From the NCBI GenBank assembly GCA_043754455.1, contig JAYUUT010000110.1:10588-74587 (forward strand): a stretch of 64,000 nucleotides of DNA. The letters are read 5' to 3'. Each line of letters opens with the position of its first letter. Positions within the stretch are counted from its first letter, which is position 1. A program made the position numbers and the translations under genes. Of this stretch, positions 18,340 through 64,000 are shown in pieces. This DNA is from Myxococcales bacterium (lineage in GTDB: Bacteria > Myxococcota_A > Polyangia > Fen-1088). The notes beneath the pieces are model-generated. The model was not told the DNA's origin. It saw only the letters and a list, made by a program, of their open reading frames with translations, and did no database searches.

Positions 18340-18549
18340 ATGGCAGTTGGGCTCCGGCAGTCGGGTGCGCCCATCACCGTCGCCGCCAAACACCCGTTTT
18401 GTGCCGGACCGCCGAGGCGAATCCGACCGGCGAAGGGTGCGCCATTGTACCCAATCTGGCGAGAAAATTCCTTGTTTCCAAATGTTTTCGGGGACGTACC
18501 CAGGATGACCGGACGAACCTCCCCGAAAACGGACTCGCCGTTTGACGCG

Positions 18550-18873: not shown

Positions 18874-19017
18874 GAAGATTCCTCCTTAAATGAAACGTAT
18901 CAACAGCGGGACATCATTCCGCGTCGCAAGCCTGAGGTCTGACACACCTTGGGGCTGGCGACAACTCCCCCTATCAGACGCATAAGCTCCCCCGAACAAT
19001 TCACGGCCGCGCAAGGG

Positions 19018-19839: not shown

Positions 19840-19856
19840 GCGCGCCTTGACGCCCG

Positions 19857-20621: not shown

Positions 20622-20760
20622 CGAAGGGGTCCTCGTAAGGAACGAACCCTATGGAAGTGAGGGGGGGCTGTCAACGCATATCGGTAAGCGCCGTGGGGTG
20701 AAAGAAACCCACCCCCGCAGTCGGGATGTTCGTGCTATCAGGTCTGTCGGTCCCCCCCTG

Positions 20761-22176: not shown

Positions 22177-22261
22177 TGCGGGTCGGAGTATCCGACTGGT
22201 GGCGCGCGGGTGCAATCCCCCTGACGAAAGAAGACGCGGATTGATCGTGGGGGGGGTGGGC

Positions 22262-43272: not shown

Positions 43273-44358
43273 TTAAAAATCGAATCCGCCACTGAGGGAC
43301 AGGCTGTCTTGGCGACCGCTTCCATCCCGAGGCCCGTTGGGGCGCTTCCCATCGCGGCTGCTGCCCGCAGGAACTGTTTCCAGTGATGCCGCCAGGAATA
43401 CGGTGGCAAACTTCAGTTTTGTGCCCGCGAAATAGCGCTGCCGGGTGATGACGTCCTGTTCGGGGAAGCTAAAATTGGCGCGCTGATCGTTGTCAGTGCC
43501 ACGCTGGGCGTTTGCGCACGATCCACCAACGTTCGTGTTGGGGCCCGCCTGGCGAACCGATTCGGCATCACACGCGGGCGTCAGATCGAACACGCCGCTT
43601 GATGCATTGATAAACAAAAAACTGGTCCCGGCGAATAGTTCCATCCGAAACGTACCCCGCACGCCGAAACCTTTGGACGCGATCAAATCCAACGACGTGA
43701 CGGTCATGCGAATTTGGTCAGTGCCTGTTAGATAGGCAACCGCACCACGAACGGCAAACGATGGCAGCGGCCAACCGTGAAACCCTTCGTGCACTGCCAA
43801 TTTTGCGTAGCCCTGCCACGATACCAACTGCGATTCCAAAACGTTGACCGCCCCGGCGCCAAATTCGAAGGCAGGCAGGCCCAGCCAAATGCCCTTGCGC
43901 ACAAAAGCCCCCAGCGTTGTCAGCGAGCCTGATGGCCGCTTCGCATTCGGATTTTCGATGGCAACGCCCTGGACACCATTCCAGTACGAGGCCCGATTGG
44001 AAATGCCGGTGACCCCCAGTTCACCCGAAATCTGAAATCCGGCGAACCCCAACGTGTCAGCAGGCATCACCAATCGTGGGGCCGCCACGACGCCCAATTC
44101 GGACATGAGGCTGCGAAACCGTTCGGTAGCCGCACCATCGGGTGTCACCTCGGTAATCAGCCCGGACCCCGGCTGGCGGCGCACCCAGGAGCATTCAGGA
44201 ACCTGCGCGTTAAGCTGACCGGACGGTGCCGCGCGCTGGTCGCAAAGATTCAGCAGGAACGGATCATGCCGCCCGGCACACGCCACGCGAGATCCTGACG
44301 CCGAGACGGCTAGCGCCAGCGTGCCAATCAAGATCCGGTTAAGGCCGCGTCCCACCAT
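43273..44358 (-). CDS. Hypothetical outer-membrane beta-barrel protein
   Basis: Signal peptide 'LIGTLALAVSASG'. Beta-strand-rich sequence with a C-terminal aromatic 'SLSGGFDF' typical of OMP insertion signals. Confidence 0.5.
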   Translation of the reverse strand: MVGRGLNRILIGTLALAVSASGSRVACAGRHDPFLLNLCDQRAAPSGQLNAQVPECSWVRRQPGSGLITEVTPDGAATERFRSLMSELGVVAAPRLVMPADTLGFAGFQISGELGVTGISNRASYWNGVQGVAIENPNAKRPSGSLTTLGAFVRKGIWLGLPAFEFGAGAVNVLESQLVSWQGYAKLAVHEGFHGWPLPSFAVRGAVAYLTGTDQIRMTVTSLDLIASKGFGVRGTFRMELFAGTSFLFINASSGVFDLTPACDAESVRQAGPNTNVGGSCANAQRGTDNDQRANFSFPEQDVITRQRYFAGTKLKFATVFLAASLETVPAGSSRDGKRPNGPRDGSGRQDSLSLSGGFDF

Positions 44359-44476
44359 TGCCCCTGGACGCTACGGGCGCGGCCTTACACCTGTCAAGCT
44401 GTGCAAGCCAAGGTCGATCCAGATTCAGCAATATGCTCACTCCCTTGGCCCTTACACACCTGGGCCTATAATGACC

Positions 44477-44506
44477 TACATGAACACGACCTACATGAAC
44501 ACAAGG
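44477..44506. repeat. Perfect 15-bp tandem duplication at the 3' flank of the methyltransferase islet
   Basis: 'gacctacatgaacac' x2 in the intergenic region, ~100 nt downstream of the MTase stop. Confidence 0.7.
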
Positions 44507-44602
44507 GCGACAGGGATAGGAAACATATCGTTCGGCCTGGGGGCCATTCCGGTGAAACGCTGGCCGAGGTGATGCGCACCAAGGGAAGGTGACCATAAGT
44601 TT

Positions 44603-46519
44603 TCAATGGGCAATGTCTTTGAGGGAAACTTGGGTGCAACTTTCAACGTGCTTTCGGTGACTTGCGTTCAGCGCGAAAGCTTCCATCACCAAGGCATTTA
44701 TTTCCCGGTATGCCGAAACCCCAGATGGGGGGTCACGCAAGATGATGTCCACCAGCCGAGAGAGTTCTTGGTCAGTCGTATTTGAGATTCGGGGGAAGGG
44801 CATTTTTTCAACATCGCCCTTCAACACCTTGATCGCTTGGAATCGCCTCGCAAAAACAAATTGAAAAAGCTGGGAATTTAGGAACGCCAGCACGCTTTTT
44901 ATGGAATAGCCCTCCAGATTCGGGATCAGCACATTCGCGCTGTTTAGGACGAGCGTCTGCTTGTCGTCATACGCGAAGATCAGTTCATCCGAAATGAAGC
45001 GATACACCAACTTTTCCGCAGCCCGGTATTTCCAAGTTGGAGCCACTTGCTGGAAGGCTTCGGGTTGGAACCTAATGTATTTGGCGGGTTTGTCCGCAAC
45101 AAATCGACACAAGTCCTTTCCGAGCCAAAGAGGCTCCGTCTCATCATCAGGACTATCGAGAACAAAGCGCGAATTGTTTCCAGTTACGATACCAAGAGCC
45201 CACTCTGCGTTCCCGCGGAGCGTTAAGTGCTCCGAAGAAAACACAGCATCGATCACTTCTCGCTCCTCATGACTCGAACGAATATCGAAAATGTAATCCT
45301 CGCCTTTAAGGACACTCTCTTGAAGAACACTGACTTCGGAAACGCCATGACGGGCGATGAAAGTTGTGCTCTGCGAATGGCGGGACTTGAAAGCATCAAC
45401 TCTCACGACCTTGGAAAAGACGTTTTGAAATACTCGGCCCAAGTTACTTACTGAATCGAGTGTTGCGTTCTCGAGCAAAACCCGTCGGAGATTGCGGTGA
45501 GTCTTGATGTTCAAGAAGGCTTCGGGCAGTAGGATGGACAGGCCCCCCCCATTTTTAAGCAGTCTCAGACCAGCCAAAACGAAGAAGGAAAACGAATCGG
45601 AGACGTCAGCATGGAAGCGAGTCCTGAGAGACACCAATTCCTGCGTCGACAAATGACCGCCCCACGGAGGGTTTGTGGCGACCACGTCGAACCGACCGCC
45701 TGCGTCTAATAGTCCGTTTTCATGGTGGATGTTCGGCGTAAACTCGTGATGCGGGTAGCTCAGAAGGAGATTTATCCGCGCAATTCGAACCGCAATCTCG
45801 TCAATATCATACCCCCATACCGCCCTAGGTTCTGTGATGATGCGCGATGCTTTAACTAGGAAAATCCCGGTACCGCAGCATGGGTCTATAAACATTGAGT
45901 CTGGCCGTGTGTGCAGTCGAACCATCGATTCGGCAATCGAGGCTGGTGTGTAATACGAACCAAAGCTCGATTTTGTGCCTTCAGCCAAAAGTGATTGATA
46001 GAGCAATCCCAGAAAATCCGGGTGCGTTTCGGAAATAATCAGCTGGGGCAGAGAATGGAGTGCTGCTGGCTCGTCTCTCCACCAGTCCAGTTCGGCTTCG
46101 ATACTGGGCCGGGGATCCTTTCCTGCGAACATCTGGATCACTACCAGCTTTAGAAACGTCTTAAGACTGGCACCAGAAGCACGGAAATAATGAACGCATC
46201 GTTCGATCTCTTGGATGAGTGGCTTGGAAGCGAGATACTCCTGGGGTACGAAGGTTTCGCAACTCGCCCTTTTGTTTGCGCGCGTTCGGAGCCGGCCACT
46301 CCCGCCACTGCTAATTGAGTCTTTTAGACTGTTAAGCTGCTGCGTGTGAAAGACCATATCGCCGCTTTGGGTGGGCTGAACCGTCAGAACTCCACTTTTG
46401 ACCCAGTTTCTCGCCGTAGCCGTTGAGATTCCAAGGCGTTCGCTCGCGGTCTTAAGGTCGAGCAGTTCGTCCTGAGAGTCTAAAAATGGCAGAGATGTTT
46501 GAATGGTCTGCTTCATCAT
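44603..46519 (-). CDS. Gamma-class N6-adenine DNA methyltransferase (Eco57I/TaqI-like) with an N-terminal HTH_17-type domain and a C-terminal target-recognition domain; no cognate endonuclease nearby
   Basis: HTH 'LKTASERLGISTATARNWVKSGVL'. Motif I 'FIDPCCGTGIFL'. Motif IV 'NPPWGG'. 'GSYYTP' and 'GYDID' blocks are typical of the Eco57I-like N6 MTase family. Local base composition is visibly lower GC than the flanking genes. Confidence 0.8.
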   Translation of the reverse strand: MMKQTIQTSLPFLDSQDELLDLKTASERLGISTATARNWVKSGVLTVQPTQSGDMVFHTQQLNSLKDSISSGGSGRLRTRANKRASCETFVPQEYLASKPLIQEIERCVHYFRASGASLKTFLKLVVIQMFAGKDPRPSIEAELDWWRDEPAALHSLPQLIISETHPDFLGLLYQSLLAEGTKSSFGSYYTPASIAESMVRLHTRPDSMFIDPCCGTGIFLVKASRIITEPRAVWGYDIDEIAVRIARINLLLSYPHHEFTPNIHHENGLLDAGGRFDVVATNPPWGGHLSTQELVSLRTRFHADVSDSFSFFVLAGLRLLKNGGGLSILLPEAFLNIKTHRNLRRVLLENATLDSVSNLGRVFQNVFSKVVRVDAFKSRHSQSTTFIARHGVSEVSVLQESVLKGEDYIFDIRSSHEEREVIDAVFSSEHLTLRGNAEWALGIVTGNNSRFVLDSPDDETEPLWLGKDLCRFVADKPAKYIRFQPEAFQQVAPTWKYRAAEKLVYRFISDELIFAYDDKQTLVLNSANVLIPNLEGYSIKSVLAFLNSQLFQFVFARRFQAIKVLKGDVEKMPFPRISNTTDQELSRLVDIILRDPPSGVSAYREINALVMEAFALNASHRKHVESCTQVSLKDIAH

Positions 46520-47829: not shown

Positions 47830-49326
47830 TTAAAAACGGCTGCTGTACGCGAAAGATCCACCCCCAGGGGCGGCCGAAAACAGAAACGATTCTGTGCTGC
47901 TGTTCCGGTATTCGGGGATGGCCAGCAACACCGCACCGGTGACCATCGTCATGCCACCTGCAAACAGGCCTGCACCCCCCCAAAATTTGTAATTGCCTGC
48001 CTGCCGCCGCAGCCGCTGCGACAGATCGAAATCATCCCGGCTGGCTTCGCTTTGGGACAGTTTGCTGTCGGATTTGACGCTGGCCCAGATCCCCGCGGTC
48101 AGGGTGACAGCCCCCGCGCCGATCAAACACCACGCAGGCACGTCTGTGTACCAGGGGTCGATCTGCGAATCGGGATCGACAACCTGGGGGGCCGCCGCCA
48201 CCAAATCGTCCGCCAAGGAGGCCGCGCCGGGTCGCACGACCCCCGGATTTTCTTTGCCTGTCGCTAGATAGTTGCCTAGCAATTTGGCCTTTTCCGTTTC
48301 CAGCCGAACAGCGCCCACGCGGTTCGAAAATCCTGACCTCAAATAGACCTGTCCTTTCATGAAATCCGAACCCTTCAGTTCGCCCACCGAAACCAGCACG
48401 ATCGCTTCGGCATCAAATCGTTCGGCCAGTCGCCGGACATAACTTTCTTCAAGCTGTTTTCTTTCTGCGGTGGAGGCAAACCGGATACGTGCCCCACCCT
48501 CAGCCTGGAAAATGCGTTCGAATTCGGCGTCTAGCAGTTCCTGGCGCGCGGATTCATCAGGACGAAGACCGACACGTTTGACGAAAGACAACGCGGGCTT
48601 GGAACTGGGATCTGACGCTGCGGCGGCGGCTTCACAGCGGGCCTGCGCGTGGTATGTGGTGCCAGGAAGAACGGCAATGTCCACGGGGGACTTCCCCACG
48701 GGTAACCCGCCGACCAAGACCTCACAGGCCTCTGGCCGGGTTTTGAAGGTCAATTTCCCACCAAGACCGGGATTCGGCGTTGCAAGCAACGCCCGCGCTT
48801 CGGGGGAAATTTTCTCGTCCTCGGCGGCCTTGCGCCCGGGGAACAAAAGTCCGGTTTCTTCTGCCACCTTCTTAGCCTTGTCGCCCTCGTTGGCCAAAAC
48901 CAGGGCCGTGACCCAAAGGGCGCTGGCCCGATACCCTAAGGCCTCACCTTTGTCACCCAACGGGGCGGTTTTGCGGGCTGCCAGTATTTCGTCCCGTGCG
49001 GCTTCAAAAATCGAGGCTGCGTCGGCCGCTGCGCCGTTCATTTTGGCGACGGCTTCTTCGATCTTGACGGTTAGGGTGACCATGGCTTCGGGCGAAAGGG
49101 CGACGGCGTCCGCTAACCAGGCCTGTAACCCCGCGCCTTCGGCCACGGTCCATTGGCGGTTCGCCCGCAACCCTTCGGCCAGCGCCTGTACCAAGTTCGA
49201 CGCTGGATCCGGGGCATTGCCCAGAACCACCGGCAGCACAACCACCCGACCCGCGGCGCCCGCCGTCCCTACCAACAGCAGCTGCCCCACCAAGAACAAC
49301 CCAGACAGATTCGACGTGCGTTTCAT
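47830..49326 (-). CDS. Hypothetical secreted/membrane protein, possibly with a PEGA-like domain and two C-terminal TM helices
   Basis: Signal peptide. '[19 protein letters not shown]' resembles PEGA. Hydrophobic '[16 protein letters not shown]' and '[20 protein letters not shown]' near the C-terminus. Confidence 0.45.
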
Positions 49327-49903: not shown

Positions 49904-51244
49904 CTAAAGCACATATTGGGACAGATCTTCGTCCTTGAGGACCCCGTCTAACCGTTGTTGCACATACGCTGCGGTGATGACAATCGTGCGGGCGCCCAGT
50001 TCTGATGCTTCGAACGACAGTTCATCCAGCAGCCGTTCCATGATGGTGGCCAGCCGCCGCGCGCCGATGTTTTCCATGCGGGCGTTCACGTCGGCAGCGA
50101 TGGCCGCGATGGCTGCGACGGCGTCGGGCTGGAATTCAAGGGTGACCTGGTCGGCTGCCAAAAGCGCGGTGTATTGCCGGGTCAGCGCATTTTCTGGTTC
50201 AGTTAAGATGCGAACAAAATCTTCAGCCGTTAGCGCTTCTAGTTCCACGCGGATTGGGAAACGGCCCTGCAATTCGGGAATCAGATCCTTGGGCTTGGCC
50301 ACATGAAACGCACCTGCGGCAATGAACAGCACGTGGTCGGTTTTCAGTGGCCCATATTTGGTCGATACCGTTGACCCTTCAACGATGGGCAACAGATCGC
50401 GCTGCACGCCCTCGCGCGATACATCGGGCCCGCGGCCGCCGCCTTCGCGCCCGGCCACCTTGTCGATTTCATCAATGAAGATGATGCCGCTGCGTTCAGC
50501 ACGGTTCATGGCTTCTTTGGTGACAAGGTCCATATCCACCAATTTCCCGGCTTCTTCCTCCACCAGCGCCAGCAGGGCTTCGGGCACGGCCATTCGCCGC
50601 CGTTTGGGCTTGCGCGCCCCGGGCATCATGTTTTGGATATTGGCAACCATGTCTTCCATCCCCGTGCCCTGAAACATATCGGGGGGTGGCGGGGGTGAAT
50701 CGGTGGTCTCGATCTCGACGCTGCGATCGTCCAGTTTCCCTTCACGCAAAAGCCGCCGCAAACTGTCGCGCGTGGATGTGTCCGCCGCAGGTGTGGCCCC
50801 GCGCGTGGGCGGCAGCAGAGCATCAAGCAATCGTTCTTCGGCGTTGTCGCGGGCGCGGGGCCGCACCCGTTCGCGTTCTTCGGCGCGCACGAGCGCCACC
50901 GATGTTTCAGCCAGATCGCGCACCATCGAATCGACGTCGCGGCCGACGTACCCCACTTCGGTGAATTTCGACGCTTCAACTTTGATGAACGGGGCGCTAG
51001 CCAGTTTTGCCAAACGCCGCGCGATTTCGGTTTTGCCAACCCCGGTGGGCCCAATCATCATGATGTTCTTGGGTGTAATTTCATCCCGCATCGGAAGGGG
51101 CACCTGTTGTGCCCGCCAACGATTCCGCAACGCCAAGGCCACCGCGCGTTTGGCCGCACGCTGCCCGACGATGTACCTGTCCAGTTCTTCGACGATCGCC
51201 CGCGGTGTCAGGGCATCAAGACGCAGCGGCTGAGCCACGGTCAC
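49904..51244 (-). CDS. hslU: ATP-dependent protease ATPase subunit HslU
   Basis: '[12 protein letters not shown]', Walker A '[15 protein letters not shown]', the I-domain, 'IIFIDEIDK', and the C-terminal 'DLSQYVL'. Confidence 0.95.
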
Positions 51245-51783
51245 AGCTCCTCGAAGACTAGGTTGTGATTTGTATACACGCAGATGTCGGCCGCAATGTT
51301 CAGGCTGCGTTCCACGATCTCACGCGCGGGTAACGTCGTCGCCGACAGCAGGGCCCGGGCCGCCGCCAGCGCAAACGATCCGCCCGATCCCACAGCGGCA
51401 ACGTCACCGTCGGGTTCGATCACATCGCCCGTGCCTGAGATCAATAAAATGCGTTCGTTGTCCGCCACCAACAACAGGGCCTCAAGCCGGCGCAACGCCC
51501 GATCCAGCCGCCAATCTTTGGCCAGTTCTACCGCCGCCCGCACCAAATTGCCGCCCGTGTCCTTTAGCTTGGCCTCGAATTTTTCAAACAGGGTCAGGCC
51601 ATCGGCTGCGGATCCGGCAAACCCTGCCACAAGGCGACCGTCGTGGAGCCTCCGCACCTTGCGCGCGGTGCCCTTGACCACGGTCTGGCCCATCGTCACC
51701 TGACCATCCGAACCAATGACGACCTTGCCATCGCGACGCACCACCAAAACTGTCGTCGCGTGAAACTGGGGTATTTCCATCAC
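51241..51783 (-). CDS. hslV: ATP-dependent protease subunit HslV
   Basis: '[24 protein letters not shown]' is the N-terminal Thr protease signature. Overlaps hslU by 4 nt. Confidence 0.95.
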
Positions 51784-51825: not shown

Positions 51826-53148
51826 TCAACGCGCGGGACAACCGGGGGATGGTACCCCGTAGCCTGCTATCAACCGGTACATGGTGCCGCCGGGGGCCGG
51901 GCTTGTCGCGGGTGTCCAGGTCAGGCCGTCCATGCTGCGGAAAAAGGTTGAAGCGGTACGGTTCAGGCCGACCCAGGCGCCTCCAGGGGCGCGGACGACC
52001 GCATGCAGCCTGAGGCCGGTGGGCAATTTTCTTTCGGTCCAGGCCACGCCATTAGGACTGACCAGAACCCGTCCGCCGTCGGCCACCCAGAACTGGGTCC
52101 CATCGAAGGAGACTTTGCCGCTTAAAGATCCCTCGGTCGGAACCTGAGCTTCGGTCCAGGTTGCCATATCGGTGCTGGTGCACACTTCTCCCTTGTACCC
52201 GACAAAGACCAAACGCCCAGCCCCCAACGCCCCACCACCATCCTCGCCGACACCCAGAGCATGAAACGTGGAACAACCCGTCGCCAGTTTCCAGGTCTTG
52301 CCGCCATCGACACTGACGTGGGGCGGATTTTTCTCTAGGCCCGCCGGCTGGTTCGCCCCACCCGCCAGGACTATGCCCGGCGAGGGCCCATTGCCGACCA
52401 CCTCGCGAACGTGTTCTGAACGGATCATTGAGTTATTAAACTTGCCAACGGGTTTCCATTTCAACCCATCAAAATCAGATGCGTAGGTCACCCCTGTGTA
52501 GTGAACCATCGTGAAACCCTCACCGTTGAAAGTGACGCCGCCACATTCAGACATACCCGGCAGGCCCACGTCCTTCATCACCAGACGTTGCCAGGTGACG
52601 CCGTCGGTGCTGCGCATGAACGAGCACTGGGCGCCCCATCCCACGATGCGCATAAAAACCCCATGACCAAAGGCCAGTCCTTTTTCGATCAGCTCGGCGG
52701 GATCGGCCACACCTGGAAAATCCTGTGCCTTCCAGGTCAGTCCCTCATCGCAAGACATGGCAGTCCTACCCTTGCTACCGGACGCCACCAGCAACGGCAC
52801 GGTGCCTGCCGGGCGCCCCGACGAGGCCGCGTCAGGAACAGTGAGGCCCCCCCCATCGATGGAACCACCCATCCCCGATCCGCCCGGCCCCGATTTTCCG
52901 CCCGCCCCCGGTGCGCCCCCCAGATTTCGATCCCCGCCGGTGCCAAATCCACCCGAACCTCCAACGCCGACATTCGGGTTGCCCCCAACACCCCCAGCCA
53001 CCCCCCCACCCCCCCGACCGCCGGGGGCCGTCGTGCCTCCCTGCGCCTCCATAGGGCCGCCTGTCCCCATGGGTCCTTCCTGGCCACCCGACCCGCTGGA
53101 ACAGGCCCCAAAAAATAGGATCAGCACCGAAGAACGAGGAAAATGCAT
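51826..53148 (-). CDS. Lipoprotein with a Gly-rich linker and a BNR/Asp-box repeat beta-propeller (sialidase- or Ycf48-like)
   Basis: Lipobox 'FFGACS'. Gly-rich linker. Multiple S/TxDxGxTW repeats (SCDEGLTWK, STDGVTWQ, VDGGKTWK, SMDGLTWT, and others). Confidence 0.65.
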   Translation of the reverse strand: MHFPRSSVLILFFGACSSGSGGQEGPMGTGGPMEAQGGTTAPGGRGGGGVAGGVGGNPNVGVGGSGGFGTGGDRNLGGAPGAGGKSGPGGSGMGGSIDGGGLTVPDAASSGRPAGTVPLLVASGSKGRTAMSCDEGLTWKAQDFPGVADPAELIEKGLAFGHGVFMRIVGWGAQCSFMRSTDGVTWQRLVMKDVGLPGMSECGGVTFNGEGFTMVHYTGVTYASDFDGLKWKPVGKFNNSMIRSEHVREVVGNGPSPGIVLAGGANQPAGLEKNPPHVSVDGGKTWKLATGCSTFHALGVGEDGGGALGAGRLVFVGYKGEVCTSTDMATWTEAQVPTEGSLSGKVSFDGTQFWVADGGRVLVSPNGVAWTERKLPTGLRLHAVVRAPGGAWVGLNRTASTFFRSMDGLTWTPATSPAPGGTMYRLIAGYGVPSPGCPAR

Positions 53149-53201: not shown

Positions 53202-54179
53202 TCAAGGCAAACCTGGTTTGGCCAGTCTGCGGGCCACGTCCCCCACCGGCCCCGGGCGACGGGCCAATTCGGCCCGCAACGCTGGGGCCTCGGGGCCGGG
53301 CATTCTGCCAAGGCATGGCAGCAGATCTATGACGTCCTCAGCAGGAACCACGTCTGCGACGACCGCCGCGCGCAGCGCCTTGCCCAGGGGTAGCGCCGTC
53401 CAAGGTTTTTTTTCGCGCAGCTCGCGGGTGCAGGCGGCGGCGGCCGCGGCCCCGGCAACTTGAGGAACCACATCATCAAAGGCGAGTGACGGAACGTCGG
53501 CACGCCGGCCGCCGATCCCGGTTAGGATCCAACCCGCGCGGCGGATCGCTGGGTCCAAATCTTTCCCCAATTCAGCCAACAGGGCCGGGCTGGCAGGACA
53601 GGTCGCCGCAGCTTCGCCTAGGGCCTCGATGGCAGCGGCCCGCACCCCCACGTCGGACGTCGCGGGCGTCGCGCGCTGGCGAAGGACGCGGCAGGCGTTA
53701 TTCACAACGTCCCAGGGCAATTCAAAATCGGCCAAGATCCCGTCCGGGCCTTGGCCAAGAAGCCGCCCCAGAATTGCCAAGGCCCGAGGCGCCAATTGGG
53801 GAAGACCTGCTGCCGGGGGCATGTCATCGGGAGTGGCCAACGGCCCTGTGGGCACGCCCGCGGCCACACGAGCCACGTCCTGCATCAACAAGACCCCCGC
53901 GGGCAGGGTCGAGGTCGCCTCAAGCGCGGCGCGGACCAGGTCGCTATCCGGGTCGCCCAGCGCCACCCCCAGCCGCGACGGACCCATGCGTGCCGCCAAA
54001 CGGGCCAGCTCTGAACGATCGGCGCGCGCGTGCGCGGCGATAAGGCTACGCATCGGTACCTCGTAAATCCCCAAACGTGCGTTCGGCACGGCCGGATCGG
54101 GCGCGGGCGCCGCGCGCGCGAAGGTCGCTGCAACCCAAAAAACTGACGAAATCCCTAGAATCCACTGCGACTTGGGCAT
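53202..54179 (-). CDS. Hypothetical secreted Ala/Leu-rich helical-repeat protein
   Basis: Signal peptide 'ILGISSVFWVAATFARA'. Repeated 'A(L/I)EALGE'-type helical segments reminiscent of HEAT/PBS repeats. No catalytic motif. Confidence 0.4.
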   Translation of the reverse strand: MPKSQWILGISSVFWVAATFARAAPAPDPAVPNARLGIYEVPMRSLIAAHARADRSELARLAARMGPSRLGVALGDPDSDLVRAALEATSTLPAGVLLMQDVARVAAGVPTGPLATPDDMPPAAGLPQLAPRALAILGRLLGQGPDGILADFELPWDVVNNACRVLRQRATPATSDVGVRAAAIEALGEAAATCPASPALLAELGKDLDPAIRRAGWILTGIGGRRADVPSLAFDDVVPQVAGAAAAAACTRELREKKPWTALPLGKALRAAVVADVVPAEDVIDLLPCLGRMPGPEAPALRAELARRPGPVGDVARRLAKPGLP

Positions 54180-54259: not shown

Positions 54260-55501
54260 GTGAGCGATACGCGTCATACTAGCAAAGGGCCGGTCCGGAT
54301 CATCACCGTGGGTGGGGGACGTGGGGTGGGTAAAAGCGCCGTGGTGGCCAATTTGGCCGTCACGCTGGCCCAAAGCGGACGCCAGGTTGTGGTGGTCGAT
54401 CTGGACCCCCTCGCGCCGCGCCAGCATCAGCTTTTGGGCGTCGCAGACCTCGATTCGTCGTCCGTGGTTCCGGGGGCCGCCTTGTCGGCACTTTTAGCCC
54501 CAGGCGGGGCGACAGCCCTGGTCGCGACAAAGGCACCAGGGGTGCGGCTGCTGCTGGGCCAAGGTGCCGCGCGGGTTGGCCTTGCACCCGGCGAATCACT
54601 TCGGGCCCTGCGGGCGCTGCAGACCTTGCCGGGCGATGTGCTGATCATCGATGTCGGGGCGGGCGGTGAAGCTGGGATACTGGATGTCCTACAGTTGGGG
54701 GCCCATCGGGTGATCGTGACCACACCGCAGGTCGCATCGATGCATGAATCATTTGGGCTGTTGCGGGCGGCCTTAGGGCGGCTTCTGCGTGCACAATTGG
54801 GGGCGACCCCGACGCGGCTTCTTGATCCCCCCGCGGCCATGCCCGAGGGCGAGAAGGCTGTCGATAGGGACGTGCGGATCAGAGACCTTGATCCCAACCT
54901 CGCGGCCCGGATACGCGACATCCAGTCCAGTTTTGGGGCCTGCGTGGTTGGCAATTTGGTGCAGGAGCCGGGCCAGGTGGGGATCTTTCACGCGCTGGGC
55001 AGGATGATGAACGAGTACCTAGGGCTAGAGGCGCCCATCCTGGGATGGCTGCCCATCAGCGCGAAAGTGGCTGAGGCCTGCCGCGAGGGAAGCCCGTCTG
55101 TGTTGCGGCCAAGCCAAGCGCAAAGCGATGAAGCCCGTGCGCTGCGCACCATGGCCGAAGTCCTGATGGACGCGCCGATAGCGCCGGTCGAGGCCTGGTT
55201 GCGTGCAGCAATCCCAGAGCCCGCCGTCACGCCTTTGGATCCTGATACATCGTTGGCCTCAGGGCGGGTCGGGCCCCCGCCCGTTCCGCGAACCTCGCCA
55301 GAACGCACAACCGTGCCTATCAAAATGGTTTCCCCGACACCGGCACCTTCCCATCCCGTGGCGACGCCCAACAAAACGCGGGTGTACAAACGTCCTTCCC
55401 ACAAAAGAGTTGCGAACGACAACCCCGAAGCCGCAGCGATCCCGGGCGGCCGGCGCCGCATGGCCCTTCCCGGCATGCCCCCAGGACGTTCCAGCGGCTA
55501 G
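54260..55501 (+). CDS. ParA/MinD-family P-loop ATPase with a Pro-rich C-terminal tail
   Basis: GTG start. Deviant Walker A 'TVGGGRGVGKSAVVANLA'. 'VVVVDLD' Walker A' / switch region. 'VLIIDVGAG'. About 130 aa of C-terminal Pro-rich, low-complexity tail. Confidence 0.7.
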   Translation: MSDTRHTSKGPVRIITVGGGRGVGKSAVVANLAVTLAQSGRQVVVVDLDPLAPRQHQLLGVADLDSSSVVPGAALSALLAPGGATALVATKAPGVRLLLGQGAARVGLAPGESLRALRALQTLPGDVLIIDVGAGGEAGILDVLQLGAHRVIVTTPQVASMHESFGLLRAALGRLLRAQLGATPTRLLDPPAAMPEGEKAVDRDVRIRDLDPNLAARIRDIQSSFGACVVGNLVQEPGQVGIFHALGRMMNEYLGLEAPILGWLPISAKVAEACREGSPSVLRPSQAQSDEARALRTMAEVLMDAPIAPVEAWLRAAIPEPAVTPLDPDTSLASGRVGPPPVPRTSPERTTVPIKMVSPTPAPSHPVATPNKTRVYKRPSHKRVANDNPEAAAIPGGRRRMALPGMPPGRSSG

Positions 55502-55553: not shown

Positions 55554-57011
55554 ATGTCTGTCCGTGTTCGCATCGCACCGTCTCCAACCGGCGATCCCCA
55601 CGTCGGCACCGCGTATATCGCCCTGTTCAATTATGCGTTCGCCAAGAAACACGGCGGCCAGTTCCTTTTGCGTATCGAAGACACCGATCGCACACGATCG
55701 ACGCCGGAATCTGAAGCCGCGATCCTAAGCGCGCTGCGCTGGGTGGGCCTGAAATGGGACGAAGGCCCGGACATTGGCGGTCCGTGCGGACCCTATCGGC
55801 AATCGGAACGGGCTGATATCTACAAGGCCGAAGTGGGCAAACTTGTGGAATCAGGCGCGGCCTATCGATGTTTTTGTACCGCTGACCGCCTAGACGCCCT
55901 GCGCGCCGATCAGCGTCGTCAGGGTTTGTTCGTCGGATACGACGGGTTGTGCCGAACCTGTTCGCGCGAAGAATCCGATCAACGTGCCGCCACAGAGCCC
56001 TTCGTCATCCGCATGGCCATGCCCCGCACCGGCACCACGGTCATCACCGACAAACTGCGCGGCGACGTCACGTTCGAGAACACCCAGATCGACGATCAGG
56101 TCCTGATCAAGACGGACGGCTTCCCCACATATCATCTAGCCAACGTGGTCGATGATCACCTGATGGGCATCACGCACGTCATTCGCGCCGAAGAATGGCT
56201 CACCTCGACGCCCAAACATGTGGTGCTGTACCAGGCCTTTGGATGGCAAGTGCCAGAATTCATCCACATGCCGCTGCTGCGAAATGCGGACAAATCCAAG
56301 ATCTCGAAACGAAAAAATCCGGTGTCACTGGACTACTATCGCGCCTCGGGGTTCCTGCCCGAAGCGTTGGTGAATTACCTGGGCACCATGGGATGGAGCA
56401 TTTCTGGCGACCGCGAAAAATTCGATCTGGCCGAAATGATCGAAAAATTCACATGGGATCGCGTCAGCCTGGGTGGCCCGGTATTCGATCTGGTGAAACT
56501 GTCGGCCATGAACGCCGATTATCTGCGTGCCTTGCCCGATGCGGCAGTCGTCGAACGCCTGCGCACCTGGCGTTTTTCCGATGATTTTCTGAAGTCCCTG
56601 GTGCCCCTTGTCCGCGAACGGATTCAGCGCCTCGATGAATTTGTTCCCATGACCGAATTTTTCTTTGCGGGCGACGTTGATCACGCAGCCGTTGCCAAAG
56701 ATCTGCTGCCCAAAGGCCGCACCCCCAAAGAAACCGCTGACATTCTGGAAAAACTGATTGAAACGCTGGACAGTCACCGGGACTGGACCGCCGCGGGGTT
56801 GGAAGCCGGTTTTCGTGGGTTCTGCGAGAAAACCGGGTATTCGACCAAAGAAGTCTTCATGCTGACCCGCCTAGGTGCCACCGCACGCAAGGCCACCCCG
56901 CCCCTGTTCGAAACCGTTTCCGTGCTTGGCAAGGATCTGGTGCGTCGGCGCCTACGCCTTGCGATGGAGTTCGTGAAAAAACTGCCCGAGCCGCCAAAGC
57001 CCGGCGCGTAG
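55554..57011 (+). CDS. gltX: Glutamate--tRNA ligase
   Basis: '[16 protein letters not shown]' (HIGH motif), 'KISKRK' (KMSKS variant) and the anticodon-binding C-terminus. Confidence 0.95.
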
Positions 57012-57269
57012 TCAGATCACAGGCACCTGCGCACCATAGCCGCACTGCTGGTTGGGGCACCACGATGAGGGGAACCACCGCAGCATCACGGGCGACCAAG
57101 GAGGACTAGGTACACGGGTACGTCCGCGAGATCCATGACCCGGCGTGCTCGCTGCCTTTCACCCCTGCGTCTCGGCCAGGCTGGTCGGCTACAAACGCCG
57201 TCGACCCAAGGAAACGTTGTTGTACCGGACGGTCCAGCAGCACTTCGGACCGTTCGAGGCCGCGGTGCC
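56996..57269. repeat. Repeat copy A: a degraded remnant of a gene 3' end (minus strand) plus a shared ~150-nt leader, immediately after the gltX stop
   Basis: It shares 'gcgcaccatagcc', 'ctgctggttgggg', 'cacgatgaggggaaccacc.cagcatc.cgggcgaccaaggagga' and a ~150-nt block ('ggtacacgggtacgtccgcga ... cacttcggac.gttcgaggccg.ggtgc') with copy B at 61009-61535. Internal deletions are present relative to B and C. Confidence 0.75.
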
Positions 57270-57476
57270 CACGACGTGGGCGGCGCGAATTTTACGCAAG
57301 ACATAGGCATTATCGGTCTTGGCGCAACCGGACAAAACTGTTCGAATTACCTATGCTCTGGCCCGGCATCTCAGCTGCCACCCCGATATCTGTACCTCGA
57401 ACCCCAACGCAAACCCTTCCCACCGCGGCGTCGGACGTGGAATATTCCGACGGCGGCTCGTTGCGAAGGGGCACCC

Positions 57477-60400
57477 ATGGACGGAAAGAACATCGTGGTC
57501 GTCGTAGTGGTGGGACTGGCGGCCATGGGGGCCAAAACGACTTGGCATCACGCCACGGCAACAGCCGCAAGCTCACCAACCGTGGCGCCGTTGGACCCTC
57601 CACCTGCCTCAGCCCTGACCAAGCCCTCTTCCGAGGCGGGTTCGTCGGCCACCCTTGACCCAGGTGGGTCTGCGGCTGCTGCGACCGGCAAGGGTTATAG
57701 GTGCGCGGAGAGCCTGGAGTGTCAGCTCGAAGCATCCTTCCCCGGCGCCTTTGCGAAGCCCTCGGAATCCTCAACGATCCGGCCCGATCGGCTGAAATAT
57801 CCCTTGAACGTGGTTCTCGTGACCTTGCCGAATCCCGCATCATCAGGTTTCCCAGCGGAATTCGATCGTGGCGTGGAGGCTATCCTCCGCGCGGCGCAAA
57901 GCCAACGTTATGTCGTTCACCAGCGTTTCTTCCCCTGGGATGCGGCGGTGACACCGGAATCTGCGGCAAAATCAGGCTGGTTGCTCATGCGCCGCGATGG
58001 CAAGACAGTAGATGTAGAGCTTCTGCTGTTTTTAATTGTAGGCGAGCACCTAGGCAGCGGCGTTGATGAGGCGGCCCTTAACCATGCGCTCGATAGCTTC
58101 AAACAGATCGTCCAGCGCGGACACAGCGCCCCCGCTGTTCGACCCCTGTTGCTGCTCGGCCCGTACTTCTCGGGCACCGCCGTCTCTTTAAAGGAACAGC
58201 TGCGATCGTGGTGCCTGGAATCGCAGTTCTGCGCGTCGCGCGACCTCTTCTCAGTCTCCGGAAGCGCCACGCGGCGTCAGACCCAAGGCATACTTGCAGA
58301 CTTGGCGGAATCGTTTAAGACCAGCACGTTTCATGCGACGGTTCTACCGGACGATCTCCTGGTGGCCGGCATGCACCGCTTTTTAAGCGAACGACTGGAC
58401 GTTCCTGACAGCAAAGTAGCTGAGCTCACTGAAGCCAGCACTGACTACGGCAACGCCGTGGCCTCTTCGGAAGTCGTACCCAGAGGCGCGCGTGCGTTTA
58501 ACAAGGGAATCAAGATCCCGTTTCCCTTTCACATAGGCGTGCTTAGAGGCAACGGTGAAAAAGGAAGCCGCGCACCCGTCAATCCCGATTTTCCGAAACC
58601 TTTCGACTCTCTGGCGGCGGCCAAGACACGCCTGCTCTTGGAAAACACATTTTCCGCACTGTCTCGTCACGGCGTCCGTCACGTGGGCGTTCTGGCAACG
58701 TCCACCCAAGATAAGATTTTTCTGGTCACGGAGCTGCGTCGATCCGCCCCGGATCTCCGAATTCATTTGTACGAAAGCAGCGTTGACCTTGCCGACCGCG
58801 ATCTGCGTGAGGCCCTCGAAGGCACAGTCGTGGCATCGTCCTACCCTTTATTCCCCTCAACACAATTGTGGGCCGACGATTCCGGCGGCGCCCTTCAACA
58901 GTTCCCCACCGATGGTGCCGAGGGCGTGTTCAACGCCACGCTCGTTTTGATTGCAAGGTTTGACACCACCTTGGCCCCAACCCTCACGACACGGATGCTC
59001 GACTATGTGTCGCCCTTTTGTCCGGCGCCTGTTTTGGGACCATCGGCCTGGATCAGTGTCGTCATTGCGGGGCGGCTTTGGCCGCTTGCTGTCTATCCCT
59101 CCAGTCTTAGTCCGAAGCTGCAAAACCCGCCTTGCACAACCACCACGCCCGATCCCTACGTTTTTGCGGATCTCTCCAACTCCGGCGGCCTCCGCGTGCC
59201 CCGCCCGCGTATCCAGTCGGGCTTCATGGCTTTGCTGGGGTTGCTTGCGGTATTTCTGTTGTCCCTGGGCAACCTAGCAGCTCTGATCGCCCGATTCTCC
59301 TGGATGCGCGGTGCCTTCTTCTTTGTCACCTACCGCATGCAGCCCTCGCTGCAAAAGAGCCAGCCAATGTCGCATTTCGCCCTGGATGCGAAGGAACCGC
59401 AGCACCGCGTGGCCTTGCTGGGACTGTGGTCACTGGCAATCACGGCGGTGGTCATGGCGAAGATTTTTGGCTTGCCTCATCAGCTTGTGGGAATCGAGGT
59501 ATTGGACCCAGGTCCTCTGCAGCAAGCGGCAGATATTCTGAACTGTCTGGTTCTTGCCGTGGCCGTTGCAATGGTTGTCGCGGGCCTGCTGGCCACTGCC
59601 GCAGGTTTGTGGGGACGATCCCCGTGGCAATCCAGCACAGGGGCCCTCTGGCGCAGCGGATCGGTGTGGACTCAGCTGATTCTTTGCCTGTTCATGGTCG
59701 CCGCGATCTTCCTCCTGCCCCCCACACGCATTGTCGAGCAGCCCGACGGCCACGCATACTTCTTCTATTTGCGGTCCATGGATCCGGGCGTCGGACTGAC
59801 GCCGACACTCCCCCTTTTCATGGTGGGGGCAGCGACCTATATGGCATGTCTTTTGCGCCTGCTGGTCATCCGACGCGCCACCGCGTTGAAAGAACAGGCC
59901 CAGCACTGGTCGGCTGATTCTTTCACGCACTGTCGCAAGGCCATGGAGAACTTCGCGGAGGATGCTTCAGGTTCTTTGCTGCAAATTTGTCTGATAGGCG
60001 GGTTCTTGGGCCTTGCCGTCCTGTTTTTCAGTCCGCTTCAGTTGGGCAGTCTTGAGGGCCGTGGATTTGATGCTGGGACCAGCGCCTGCTTTGGCCTGGC
60101 CTTCGCTTTGACATTAGCCGCAGCCTGGCGGGCGTTCTCGCTGTGGCAAAAACTGAGGGACTTCACCCGTGCGCTCGCTCTGCATCCCGCGCAGGCGGCG
60201 CTTAAGCGGCTGCCTATGTCTGTCGCTCAAACTTTTCGTTCGCCGGTGCCGGGTCAAATTGGCCGCCGTCACATCGAGGTTGCCTTACATATGAAACAGC
60301 GACAATTGGGCTTGTCGGCTTTGCCAGCGTTGGCTGACCTTCTCCCGCGTTTGGACCGGCGCTGGTTTCCGTCCGCTGAAGAGACATCCCCAGATAACCC

Positions 60401-60878
60401 ATCTTCATCACCCTTCGGCCCGCCAGCGCCCCAGCGGACCGCGGCCATGCAGCCTCTTAACGACGTTGAGATCCTGGAGGAAGACTTCCTGGCCCTGCGC
60501 ATGGCCGAGGTACTGGGTTTAATGTGCGATTCAACGCGCACGATGGTCTTGATCGCAACGGTGTCGGGTTTGGCAACGTTGCTGGCAACGGCGCTCTATC
60601 CCTTTCAGCCGGCCGCAACGCTGACCGCGGCGGGCTTGGTATCGGTGGGCTTGGTCGTGGCGGTTGCCTTGCGCGTCCTCCTGGGCATTGAACGCGACGA
60701 AGTCCTAAGCGCCATCGCCAAGACAGAAGCAGGTAAGATTACCCCCACCTTGGGCCTAACCACCCGCCTTGCAGGCTACGTCCTTTTGCCTTTGGCGGGG
60801 CTGATTGGAACGCGACTCCAACGGGCTGGCGCCCTGATTGACTTCATCAAGGAGCTGACCAAGACGTTAGAACGATAA
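57477..60878 (+). CDS. Large membrane protein: N-terminal signal-anchor, periplasmic-binding-protein type-I (Venus-flytrap-like) domain, then a 7-TM block, a cytoplasmic loop and 3 further TM helices. No recognisable output domain.
   Basis: Start set at the ATG at 57477 (MDGKNIVVVVVVGLAAMGA...), because upstream codons of the track ORF lie in the repeat leader. Alternating beta-alpha segments ('NVVLVTLPNPASSGF', 'RPLLLLGPYFSGTAV', 'RHVGVLATSTQDKIFLV') resemble PBP-I / ANF-receptor ligand-binding lobes. There are at least 10 hydrophobic helices from 'GFMALLGLLAVFLLSL' onward. Confidence 0.6.
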   Translation: MDGKNIVVVVVVGLAAMGAKTTWHHATATAASSPTVAPLDPPPASALTKPSSEAGSSATLDPGGSAAAATGKGYRCAESLECQLEASFPGAFAKPSESSTIRPDRLKYPLNVVLVTLPNPASSGFPAEFDRGVEAILRAAQSQRYVVHQRFFPWDAAVTPESAAKSGWLLMRRDGKTVDVELLLFLIVGEHLGSGVDEAALNHALDSFKQIVQRGHSAPAVRPLLLLGPYFSGTAVSLKEQLRSWCLESQFCASRDLFSVSGSATRRQTQGILADLAESFKTSTFHATVLPDDLLVAGMHRFLSERLDVPDSKVAELTEASTDYGNAVASSEVVPRGARAFNKGIKIPFPFHIGVLRGNGEKGSRAPVNPDFPKPFDSLAAAKTRLLLENTFSALSRHGVRHVGVLATSTQDKIFLVTELRRSAPDLRIHLYESSVDLADRDLREALEGTVVASSYPLFPSTQLWADDSGGALQQFPTDGAEGVFNATLVLIARFDTTLAPTLTTRMLDYVSPFCPAPVLGPSAWISVVIAGRLWPLAVYPSSLSPKLQNPPCTTTTPDPYVFADLSNSGGLRVPRPRIQSGFMALLGLLAVFLLSLGNLAALIARFSWMRGAFFFVTYRMQPSLQKSQPMSHFALDAKEPQHRVALLGLWSLAITAVVMAKIFGLPHQLVGIEVLDPGPLQQAADILNCLVLAVAVAMVVAGLLATAAGLWGRSPWQSSTGALWRSGSVWTQLILCLFMVAAIFLLPPTRIVEQPDGHAYFFYLRSMDPGVGLTPTLPLFMVGAATYMACLLRLLVIRRATALKEQAQHWSADSFTHCRKAMENFAEDASGSLLQICLIGGFLGLAVLFFSPLQLGSLEGRGFDAGTSACFGLAFALTLAAAWRAFSLWQKLRDFTRALALHPAQAALKRLPMSVAQTFRSPVPGQIGRRHIEVALHMKQRQLGLSALPALADLLPRLDRRWFPSAEETSPDNPSSSPFGPPAPQRTAAMQPLNDVEILEEDFLALRMAEVLGLMCDSTRTMVLIATVSGLATLLATALYPFQPAATLTAAGLVSVGLVVAVALRVLLGIERDEVLSAIAKTEAGKITPTLGLTTRLAGYVLLPLAGLIGTRLQRAGALIDFIKELTKTLER

Positions 60879-63300: not shown

Positions 63301-64000
63301 CTACGGATCTTGTGTGATGGAAAGCAAGCCGCGCACCATAGCCAGTAGGTCATCGGCATCATCACCGGCCTGCTGGTTGGGGGTCAGCACCTGAACCGTG
63401 TCCTCGACAAGATCCACAAGTGCCACCACCGCAACAACCCCATGAGCTTCACGCAACGACGCGCGTATGTGCCCCTGCGCGCGCGTCGAGAAGCCCTGGG
63501 GCGCCACGATGAGGGGAACCACCACAGCATCCCGCGCGACCAAGGAAGACCAGAAGCTGACCGGTTCGTGAGCGCTTGCATCGACCACGGTCTGCGCAAA
63601 CAGCGCGCAGGCGACCGGTTCAAGCGGTCGGCCCAAAACAGATCCTTCGATACTATCGCCCCTCACGGCGTAAACATTAACCGCGCGGCCCGTTACCCCG
63701 TCGGCTTCGCGGTGGGCGACAACAGCCACGGTCGTTGGGCCAAGGGCAATCCCGGAGGTGTCCACATCAAACCCTGCGGCCCCCAGCGCCACAGCCAGGC
63801 GTTCCAAATACGCATCGGCGTCAACCGGCAAGGCCACAGCTTCAGACAGAGCAGGCCCCAGGACGCCCCTGGCACCCCGCAGCCGCCCCAACAACGATAG
63901 GGCCTCGTCCGCACGCTGCAAACGCTGACGGGGATCCGGGGCGGTCATCGATTCCAGCAACCGAATAAGCTGCGGATCGGCGGCAGGCAGGGCCTTTCGG
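63301..64000 (-). CDS. 3' part of a gene of unknown function (intact source of repeats A/B); continues beyond the window end
   Basis: The minus-strand ORF reaches the window edge (...SLVARDAVVVPLIVAPQGFSTRAQGHIRASLREAHGVVAVVALVDLVEDTVQVLTPNQQAGDDADDLLAMVRGLLSITQDP*). Its last ~250 nt are the template of repeats A and B. Confidence 0.55.
   Translation of the reverse strand, partial: RKALPAADPQLIRLLESMTAPDPRQRLQRADEALSLLGRLRGARGVLGPALSEAVALPVDADAYLERLAVALGAAGFDVDTSGIALGPTTVAVVAHREADGVTGRAVNVYAVRGDSIEGSVLGRPLEPVACALFAQTVVDASAHEPVSFWSSLVARDAVVVPLIVAPQGFSTRAQGHIRASLREAHGVVAVVALVDLVEDTVQVLTPNQQAGDDADDLLAMVRGLLSITQDP

Follow-up and report, generated by a model that had tools for sequence, protein, structure and literature searches.

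A predicted Venus-flytrap domain fused to a ten-helix membrane domain in a very large, unnamed bacterial protein family

Gene model and predicted architecture

We analysed a gene within a 64,000-nucleotide stretch of Myxococcales DNA (the window), located at 57477..60878 on the + strand and encoding 1133 amino acids plus stop. An earlier note on this DNA had assigned a 1247-aa protein to these coordinates; the open reading frame, ending at 60878, holds, and the length of 1247 aa is that of the maximal reading frame, which opens at 57135. The start at 57477 is backed by (i) an NCBI protein of 1133 aa identical to the gene product (P0001), (ii) the N-terminus MDGKN, which is kept among relatives, and (iii) an AGGGG motif 7–11 nt 5′ of this start. 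The upstream in-frame extension sits within the 465-nt gap after gltX and is probably left untranslated. An Rfam scan of the 5′ leader (56900–57600) gave no match, and a promoter and terminator scan was uninformative, returning no promoter-like site.

The protein comprises an N-terminal hydrophobic anchor, a periplasmic α/β domain, seven transmembrane (TM) segments, a cytoplasmic insert, three further TM segments and a short C-terminal helix (Table 1). Kyte-Doolittle (KD) analysis places a hydrophobic segment at aa 5–24, seven segments within aa 577–889, a hydrophilic stretch at ~890–1020 and three more hydrophobic segments within 1021–1110, in agreement with the N-terminal signal anchor and the 7 + 3 helices around a hydrophilic loop described in the earlier note. 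All 11 hydrophobic segments are present in at least 90% of 164 family members and can therefore not be ascribed to chance; the first is hydrophobic in 96% of the members having that region. The density of K + R alternates in a manner that fits a flytrap outside and an insert inside. In the full-length AlphaFold2 (AF2) model (pTM 0.77), residues 110–540 form 14 strands alternating with helices and are followed by long helices, while pLDDT is <50 for residues 13–74. The linker between flytrap and TM1 (residues 546–582) reaches a pLDDT of about 68–77, below that of the flanking flytrap and TM1, and apart from a 3-residue helical turn is modelled without regular secondary structure. It contains one Cys and no residue that is at least 80% conserved, and has no cysteine-rich domain.

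Table 1 Features of the gene and its product
Feature	Residues	Position in window	Strand	Basis
Whole gene, flytrap fused to polytopic membrane domain		57477..60878	+	ORF, identical NCBI protein, start kept in relatives
In-frame upstream ORF extension, 114 codons		57135..57476	+	Deposited protein and relatives begin at 57477
N-terminal hydrophobic segment, signal anchor or signal peptide	5–24	57489..57548	+	KD 1.61
Pro/Ala/Ser-rich low-complexity linker, predicted disordered	25–104	57549..57788	+	pLDDT
Predicted periplasmic type-I PBP / Venus-flytrap domain	105–545	57789..59111	+	AF2 strands and helices, Foldseek, conservation
Flytrap-to-TM1 linker	546–582	59112..59222	+	Conservation, AF2 model
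Seven-helix block TM1–TM7	583–901	59223..60179	+	KD, AF2, conservation, K+R distribution
Cytoplasmic helical insert TM7–TM8	902–995	60180..60461	+	AF2 helices 906–969, K+R-rich
Long helix/TM8, TM9, conserved loop, TM10, C-terminal amphipathic helix	996–1133	60462..60875	+	AF2, conservation

No family of any kind in Pfam or NCBIfam matches the protein at E ≤ 1. The same scan of 23 + 36 relatives and of family consensus sequences likewise matched no family at this threshold, and signatures of a kinase, cyclase, GGDEF, MCP or transporter protein were absent throughout, as the earlier note had stated for this protein. A combined PADLOC, Pfam and NCBIfam search with the protein, 59 relatives and the consensus sequences gave no useful match, and a reading as defence gene was rejected. 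Matches to DUF6594 were weak and inconsistent (best E 2e-4, 2 of 36 members).

Flytrap fold and membrane domain

Comparison of the AF2 model with the PDB by Foldseek yielded 35 matches at E ≤ 1e-3, all of them type-I periplasmic binding proteins (PBPs) or Venus-flytrap domains. They included GABA-B1b (2.9e-7), the CaSR ECD (5e-7) and AmiC (8.6e-5), as well as T1R flytraps and Leu-binding proteins, among the latter 4q6b (1.1e-6, with a TM-score of 0.59 on target). Structure prediction thus recovered the PBP-like N-terminal domain that the earlier note had proposed, and on the basis of this model the N-terminal ~450 residues adopt a type-I PBP / ANF-receptor-like flytrap fold. At the sequence level, the domain matches neither Pfam Peripla_BP_6 (PF13458) nor ANF_receptor (PF01094). 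Neither LivJ nor PDB sequences gave a significant result in profile-profile and profile-sequence comparisons, and hhalign runs that set the family profile against LivJ or a LivJ/LivK alignment were likewise not significant; the search for LivJ homologues gave only proteins >86% identical, so that no usable LivJ profile was available.

Within the family, conservation is highest in the flytrap: among 164 representatives sharing 25–50% identity, 42 of its 441 residues are at least 90% conserved, and four acidic residues (D130, E190, E319 and D412) are invariant. Conserved residues are enriched just past the C-termini of the modelled strands (OR 3.2, P 4e-4), which suggests a putative functional inter-lobe cleft. 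In a manual motif alignment that is statistically weak, Ser232, Thr265 and Tyr324 fall at the positions of LivJ Ser79, Thr102 and Tyr150, and Tyr456 takes the position of LivJ Glu226.

Modelled alone, the membrane domain reaches a pLDDT of 83 and a pTM of 0.86. Its conservation is uneven. TM1–3 are poorly conserved, the periplasmic TM4–5 loop carries R766, G773, P776 and P779, and the cytoplasmic insert (about 95–130 aa, no Pfam match) is among the less conserved parts, none of its residues reaching 90%. The most conserved membrane part is aa 996–1133, with the Y1041-P-F-Q-P1045 hairpin, R1073, L1077, S1078, T1083 and P1105. We found no conserved charged residues within the membrane helices and no internal repeats in the domain.

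Foldseek searches with the membrane-only model retrieved nothing significant from the PDB (best E 0.49, TM-score ≤0.22) or from BFVD. Searching the sequences of the PDB with profiles built from 23 and 150 sequences gave only transmembrane-composition noise, to which the GPCR matches at E 0.015–8 belong, and hhalign of the family profile against LivM was not significant. As modelled, the membrane domain is a fold without counterpart among solved structures. Because it has no relative in Pfam, NCBIfam, PADLOC or the PDB, we conclude that it is not a class C GPCR 7TM domain, an MFS or RND protein or an ABC permease; the known transporter family that the earlier note had named as the ordinary outcome was not found. 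MFS chains appeared in Foldseek only at E 0.6–5 with TM-scores of ~0.1, and neither MFS nor RND had a Pfam match. Fused-binding-domain transporters of the ABC, TRAP and TTT types were rejected in the absence of BPD_transp_1/2, DctQ/DctM and TctA matches in Pfam and NCBIfam and of any transporter fold in Foldseek, and an ABC permease additionally because no ATPase is conserved among the neighbours. The likeness to class C GPCRs raised in the earlier note survives as an analogy of domain order and fails for the membrane domain, where there is no 7tm_3 match in Pfam and no GPCR among the Foldseek matches listed. The full model aligns with GABA-B and T1R over long stretches at an rmsd of 23–36 Å, which suggests that these alignments rest on the flytrap alone.

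Family distribution and genomic context

The protein had been described as an orphan, a view at odds with the 25 relatives retrieved by word search and the 6199 family clusters at 50% identity retrieved by profile search, the best 150 of which are nearly all full length. It belongs to a very large bacterial family without a name or any previous study, whose members are annotated as ‘hypothetical proteins’ of 1100–1400 aa. The family is common among soil Myxococcota and, presumably, in further phyla. Two scans of genome contigs detected no family locus, and a metagenome scan detected six, mostly from one clade. With thousands of clusters, no Pfam or NCBIfam model and no publication describing the family found in the literature, it represents a major overlooked area of bacterial membrane biology.

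The gene was also proposed to be recently acquired cargo of an insertion hotspot. Its composition (GC 0.597, GC3 0.668) matches that of its housekeeping neighbours, as in the adjoining gltX (0.583, 0.675), and no tRNA, integrase or transposase adjoins it, so that both proposals, and mobile cargo as such, were dropped; the sole compositional island is a methyltransferase at 44.6–46.5 kb. No gene neighbour is common to about nine independent contexts, and synteny is confined to clades. An upstream gene of 278 aa is shared by two members that are themselves 85% identical, a tandem paralogue pair is present on one locus (L012), and ABC transporter genes were not found near the gene.

Proposed mechanism, alternatives and comparison with known systems

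We consider a self-contained ligand-gated conduit, either a channel or a binding-domain-fused transporter, in which a flytrap is mounted on a ten-helix membrane domain of new fold, to be the most likely function, with a probability of roughly 45%, and rank it above a partner-dependent sensor. The protein would reside in the inner membrane, with its LIVBP-type flytrap in the periplasm tethered to, and probably docked on, the ten helices. We infer ligand binding, ligand class, coupling and output as three steps. The flytrap would close around a small ligand, likely carboxylate- or amino-acid-like because Ser232, Thr265 and Tyr324 occupy ligand-contact-equivalent positions of LivJ as aligned above. 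Closure would then reach the TM8–TM10 bundle, itself conserved, together with its cytoplasmic extensions, by way of two conserved periplasmic loops, the one with R766 and the YPFQP hairpin. Finally, the protein would act alone as ligand-gated conduit, most likely so because no partner gene is conserved beside it; a partner encoded at an unlinked site would still be compatible with the lack of a linked one. The lack of conserved intramembrane charge argues against ion-coupled transport. It is a tentative and rather doubtful extension that the family forms a new prokaryotic class of flytrap-coupled receptors or channels, in which a conserved LIVBP-type sensor gates a fold absent from the PDB, as a bacterial functional analogue, built independently, of either class C GPCRs or the ionotropic receptors for glutamate.

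The same domain order, from flytrap through helical bundle to cytoplasmic surface, would also suit a transmembrane sensor without enzymatic output, whose flytrap ligand alters the insert and the extended TM7/TM8 so that these bind or release a cytoplasmic partner encoded at an unlinked site, for example a regulator, a kinase or a sigma/anti-sigma factor, functionally similar to class C GPCRs, which signal through a separate protein. Conserved cytoplasmic motifs (W890, P904, R911, E1002 and R1073-L1077-S1078-T1083) and the absence of conserved intramembrane charges are consistent with such a sensor, as are the ECF sigma factor genes that three of the contexts show no more than a few kb away, and the tandem pair on L012 is compatible with heterodimeric flytrap receptors. 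However, dedicated bacterial sensor–partner pairs are usually linked and no partner gene recurs here, ECF sigma genes are so common in these genomes that their proximity may be chance, and the insert is among the less conserved parts; we regard a sensor as unlikely. Less probable still is a role as neither receptor nor conduit. The protein would then be an enzyme embedded in the membrane, or a structural or envelope-biogenesis factor, and its PBP-like domain would either recognise a polymer or lipid-linked substrate or no longer bind a ligand. The flytrap is unusually conserved for a binding protein, its invariant acidic residues could indicate catalysis, and one clade adjoins rodA-pbp2-mreDCB and a PEGA protein. 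Yet this cell-wall neighbourhood is restricted to that clade, every significant structural neighbour is a receptor or a ligand-binding protein and none is an enzyme, and no resemblance to families of GT-C proteins, acyltransferases, flippases or ligases was found.

TM4–TM10 might alternatively represent a 7TMIC-type fold (insect odorant/gustatory-receptor-like) placed after three connector helices, yielding a flytrap-gated tetrameric cation channel. This block would begin inside and finish outside, its helices 4 and 5 (862–901 and 996–1040) span 40–45 residues and reach into the cytoplasm, a short cytoplasmic helix (1075–1080) precedes the last helix like the split TM7a/7b, and its outer loops are shorter than its inner loops. 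Conservation is highest at the cytoplasmic helix ends, the 5–6 hairpin and the last helix, the pattern reported for 7TMICs in a screen that retained only prokaryotic proteins with exactly seven TMs (bioRxiv 10.1101/2023.08.30.555482). The block thus fits the topological criteria, but these are permissive and would be passed by numerous other helical membrane proteins, and the present protein has ten helices plus anchor. Pfam 7tm_6, 7tm_7 and DUF3537 gave no match. The PDB is expected to hold many Or/Gr/Orco chains, and only one was among the 50 Foldseek matches listed (rank 45, E 5, TM-score 0.22, rmsd 12 Å). We regard a 7TMIC-type channel as very improbable.

In animals, coupling of a flytrap to a membrane domain underlies the sensing of glutamate, GABA, calcium and taste, and in bacteria it underlies binding-protein-dependent uptake. 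Should the membrane domain turn out to be a ligand-gated conduit, or else a transducer of a new type, this would represent a new solution to transmembrane signalling and a tractable bacterial model for flytrap-to-membrane coupling. At a minimum, the family merits naming and a profile model, which would make its members visible in annotation.

Among known systems, LIVBP-type PBPs (type I, cluster B; LivJ/LivK, AmiC) share the two-lobed α/β fold predicted for the N-terminal domain (Foldseek E 1e-6 to 1e-4, TM-score 0.5–0.6 on target) and the order of LivJ motifs, with GPxxSG, SGSAT, ATVxPDD and ExxTxYG corresponding to GHLCSS, TPAAT, RTTGLDS and HDKQQYG. Unlike these proteins, the domain is covalently joined to ten membrane helices, lacks a Pfam- or HMM-level match and is encoded away from ABC transporter genes. 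Class C GPCRs (mGluR, CaSR, GABA-B, T1R) have the same order of a flytrap outside followed by a bundle that begins outside and ends inside after seven helices, and their flytraps (6w2y, 5fbh) are among the best structural matches. They differ in their 7tm_3/GPCR fold and in their cysteine-rich domain, which GABA-B also lacks, and have neither the three extra helices nor the cytoplasmic insert; the host here is a bacterium without known G proteins, and to our knowledge bacteria lack heterotrimeric G proteins. 7TMR-DISM receptors likewise place a bacterial extracytoplasmic sensor domain before a seven-helix block. They carry cytoplasmic kinase, cyclase or GGDEF outputs, and assignment to them was rejected because the present protein has no output domain and no match to the 7TMR-DISM_7TM or DISMED models of Pfam. 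The 7TMIC superfamily (insect Or/Gr-like channels and bacterial relatives) resembles TM4–TM10 in topology, helix lengths and conservation as judged by published criteria, in contrast to the lack of a significant structural or sequence match, the three more helices and the large N-terminal flytrap. GlnPQ/OpuA-type SBD–permease fusions and iGluR/GluR0 differ from the present protein, which has no ABC permease, ATPase, pore-loop or known conduit fold and a binding domain of type I, whereas GlnPQ and the iGluR ligand-binding domain are of type II; what they have in common with it is the logic of linking an extracellular or periplasmic binding domain covalently to a conduit in the membrane.

Start, layout and family of the protein

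The longest open reading frame at this locus comprises 1247 codons, the length that the earlier note had assigned to the protein. We place the true start at an internal ATG (57477), since the identical NCBI protein (P0001) likewise has 1133 aa, the N-terminus MDGKN is kept in relatives and an AGGGG motif lies 7–11 nt 5′ of this codon. Once the length is corrected, the layout described in that note, a flytrap-like domain fused to seven plus three transmembrane helices, is largely borne out by hydropathy, by an AlphaFold2 full-length model (23 relatives as input; mean pLDDT 77.5, pTM 0.77) and by the alignment of 164 family representatives, in which each of the 11 hydrophobic segments is retained in 90–100% of members. 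The K+R density alternates between 0.12–0.20 in predicted cytoplasmic loops and 0.06–0.11 in predicted periplasmic loops, a pattern consistent with a flytrap and a C-terminus that face outward and an insert on the inner side. Because the segments are kept across the family and the alternation fits this topology, we consider the architecture to be real and under selection. The protein contains no output domain.

The protein had also been called an orphan, which is wrong: a word-indexed search returned 25 relatives, all 'hypothetical' and none with Pfam domains, and a HMMER profile, run over 1.84 billion cluster representatives, detected 6199 proteins at E ≤ 1e-3, of which 2838 reach E ≤ 1e-30. 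The 150 top-scoring proteins measure 1048–1491 aa, and nearly all of them span the whole profile in a single stretch. Named sources carry only 'hypothetical protein' for members, and a literature search found no paper that describes the family. The family is very large, unnamed and of fixed architecture.

Features of the window (nt), of contigs carrying relatives (nt) and of the 1133-aa protein (aa)
Feature	Position	Strand	Detail
Window
Two tandem tRNA-Ser genes	10482-10668	+	anticodons CGA, GGA; 13 nt between
ORF, 361 aa	43273-44358	-	no family match; adjoins methyltransferase
Type II DNA methyltransferase	44603-46519	-	GC 0.509; PADLOC MTase_II 1e-113; Pfam N6_Mtase, TaqI_C
ORF	47830-49326		no Pfam or PADLOC match
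hslV-hslU protease pair	49904-51783	-
ORF	51826-53148		no Pfam or PADLOC match
ORF	53202-54179	-	no Pfam or PADLOC match
ParA/MinD-like P-loop ATPase	54260-55501	+	413 aa; good match only in N-terminal ~60 residues
gltX	55554-57011		TIGR00464, 8e-143; ends 465 nt upstream of the gene
Longest ORF	57135-60878	+	1247 codons
The gene	57477-60878	+	1133 aa
ORF	63301-63960	-	no Pfam or PADLOC match
Contigs of relatives
Toxin/effector cluster (L002)	13868-23633		around distant member P0019
Tandem paralogues (L012)	9490-16430		soil-metagenome contig
Protein, hydropathy
Hydrophobic N-terminal segment	5-24		followed by ~550-aa hydrophilic region
Seven hydrophobic segments	577-889
Hydrophilic stretch	~890-1020
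Three hydrophobic segments	1021-1110
Protein, AlphaFold2 model
Pro/Ala/Ser linker	13-74		disordered
14 strands alternating with helices	110-540
Seven long helices	583-604, 641-672, 680-713, 720-746, 777-809, 835-851, 862-901
Helical insert	906-969
Last helices	996-1040, 1046-1073, 1092-1113		terminal helix 1117-1132
Protein, conserved membrane-part residues
Periplasmic TM4-5 loop	R766, G773, P776, P779
Cytoplasmic ends of TM5 and TM7	R800, W890
TM8-9 hairpin	Y1041-P-F-Q-P1045
Loop after TM9	R1073, L1077, S1078, T1083
TM10	P1105

A conserved flytrap domain

At the level of fold, the flytrap reading holds. With the full model as query, Foldseek found 35 PDB matches at E ≤ 1e-3, each of them either a flytrap domain or a type-I periplasmic binding protein: GABA-B1b (6w2y, E 2.9e-7), the CaSR ectodomain (5fbh, E 5e-7), a Leu-binding protein (4q6b, E 1.1e-6, TM-score 0.59 on target), T1R flytraps (E about 1e-5), AmiC (E 8.6e-5), and branched-chain amino-acid and urea binding proteins (E about 1e-4 to 1e-3). 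By sequence, the domain belongs to no curated family: at E ≤ 1 neither Pfam nor NCBIfam yields a match, sequence-profile searches of the PDB return only transmembrane noise, and an hhalign comparison with LivJ falls short of significance. Compared by eye, GPYFSG (228–233), SGSAT (261–265), ATVLPDD (287–293) and ExxTxYG (319–325) follow the order and spacing of the motifs GHLCSS, TPAAT, RTTGLDS and HDKQQYG in LivJ, whose numbering was checked against the translated E. coli gene. On this manual mapping, for which the alignment is not significant, Ser232, Thr265 and Tyr324 would occupy the positions of LivJ Ser79, Thr102 and Tyr150, which are ligand contacts in LivJ.

Conservation is concentrated here. 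Residues conserved at ≥90% number 42 in the flytrap (441 aa), four in TM4–7, seven in TM8–10 and the tail, and none in the linker, TM1–3 or the cytoplasmic insert. The flytrap set includes P120, D130, E190, G195, G228-P229, S232-G233, G262, A264, T288, E319, T322, G325, P350, D412, G449, Y456-P457, N486-A487, W525 and P536. Just over half (22 of 42) lie just after strand C-termini, where the clefts of periplasmic binding proteins are located, an enrichment with an odds ratio of 3.2 (P 4e-4).

Genomic setting of the gene and its relatives

The gene matches its surroundings in GC and GC3 (0.597, 0.668), as compared with gltX (0.583, 0.675) and hslU (0.606, 0.682); no tRNA gene lies within 45 kb, and the flanking ORFs scanned contain no integrase or transposase domain. 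The only compositional anomaly nearby is the methyltransferase island, 11 kb off and beyond hslVU, OsmC and an aminotransferase gene. These data do not support the proposal that the gene sits in an insertion hotspot as cargo, and recent acquisition is wrong. The island itself (43273–46519) is probably a restriction-modification island. GltX shares 75–77% identity with proteins from 'Polyangia bacterium' MAGs, which assigns the window to an uncultured myxobacterium. A GH32 glycosidase gene lies 775 nt downstream of the gene for the 1133-aa protein, 5′ of which no riboswitch is present. For HslV, the deposited start is one codon further 3′ than the called ORF start: the 179-aa form is on record, the 180-aa form is not. 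The four ORFs without a Pfam or PADLOC match (219–498 aa) may not all be genes, since high-GC shadow ORFs overlap them.

No neighbour gene is common to the roughly nine independent contexts in which relatives occur; apparent sharing arises because genomes are closely akin. In the P0010/P0013 clade (L003–L008, L010) the family gene always lies between the last genes of the nuoA-I cluster and a convergent PEGA protein/rodA/pbp2/mreDCB block, a synteny not seen in other clades. A second clade has ECF sigma/FecR genes in the neighbourhood of the family gene, and another has eCIS/T6SS effector genes. In the L002 cluster, eCIS_core-domain proteins carrying T6SS Tse3-like toxin domains occur together with a Tsi3 immunity gene and a Tle1-like lipase; this cluster is unrelated to the finding on the 1133-aa protein. 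In L012 the paralogues P0005 (1094 aa) and P0009 (1174 aa), which might form a heterodimer, are followed by an Amidohydro_2 gene, as is the family gene in L009.

The ten-helix membrane domain and its possible function

Modelled alone (aa 550–1133), the membrane domain is predicted confidently (pLDDT 83.3, pTM 0.86), and it is a conserved ten-helix domain of a fold without known match. Foldseek with this model found nothing significant in the PDB (best E 0.49, a soluble ammonia-lyase; TM-scores ≤0.22) or in BFVD (best E 0.48), and no internal repeat is detectable. Among the 50 PDB matches listed there are no GPCR or RND chains, MFS is represented by NorC (E 0.6) and ABC by BceAB (E 4.2), both at TM-score ≤0.22, and the ion-channel chains OSCA, HKT, otopetrin and TRPM7 appear only at E > 0.5 with TM-score ≤0.22. 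LivM, the permease type cognate to LIVBP, does not match the family. Membership of a known transporter family, which the earlier note had named as grounds for rejecting its reading, is accordingly negative. Full-model alignments to full-length GABA-B and sweet-taste receptors (rmsd 23–36 Å) disappear once the flytrap is removed, and therefore reflect the flytrap and generic helix matching.

The protein combines a periplasmic flytrap fold and a strongly conserved cleft region with conserved periplasmic and cytoplasmic interface motifs. The conserved positions of the membrane part sit at interfaces, and no conserved charged residue lies within a membrane helix. The flytrap would bind a small ligand, probably of carboxylate or amino-acid type, and its closure could be relayed to the TM8–10 bundle, with the R766 loop and the YPFQP hairpin as the route. 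Dedicated sensor–partner pairs are normally linked in bacteria, and no linked partner occurs here; for this reason we tentatively favour an autonomous function, whether as a ligand-gated channel or as a transporter with a fused binding domain, with a probability of about 0.45, general frame included. A sensor that depends on a separate partner is a less likely reading, against which the lack of a linked partner in about nine neighbourhoods argues, and an enzymatic or envelope role is more doubtful still.

As a more specific lead, TM4–TM10 mimic the insect Or/Gr-like seven-helix ion channels (7TMIC; bioRxiv 10.1101/2023.08.30.555482) in topology, helix lengths and conservation pattern, but the sole structural match to such a channel among the 50 PDB matches listed for the membrane-only model is insignificant, and we therefore regard a channel of this type as very improbable. 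For class-C GPCRs, kinship with the heptahelical domain is negative by the same search, and the likeness is an analogy of layout rather than homology.
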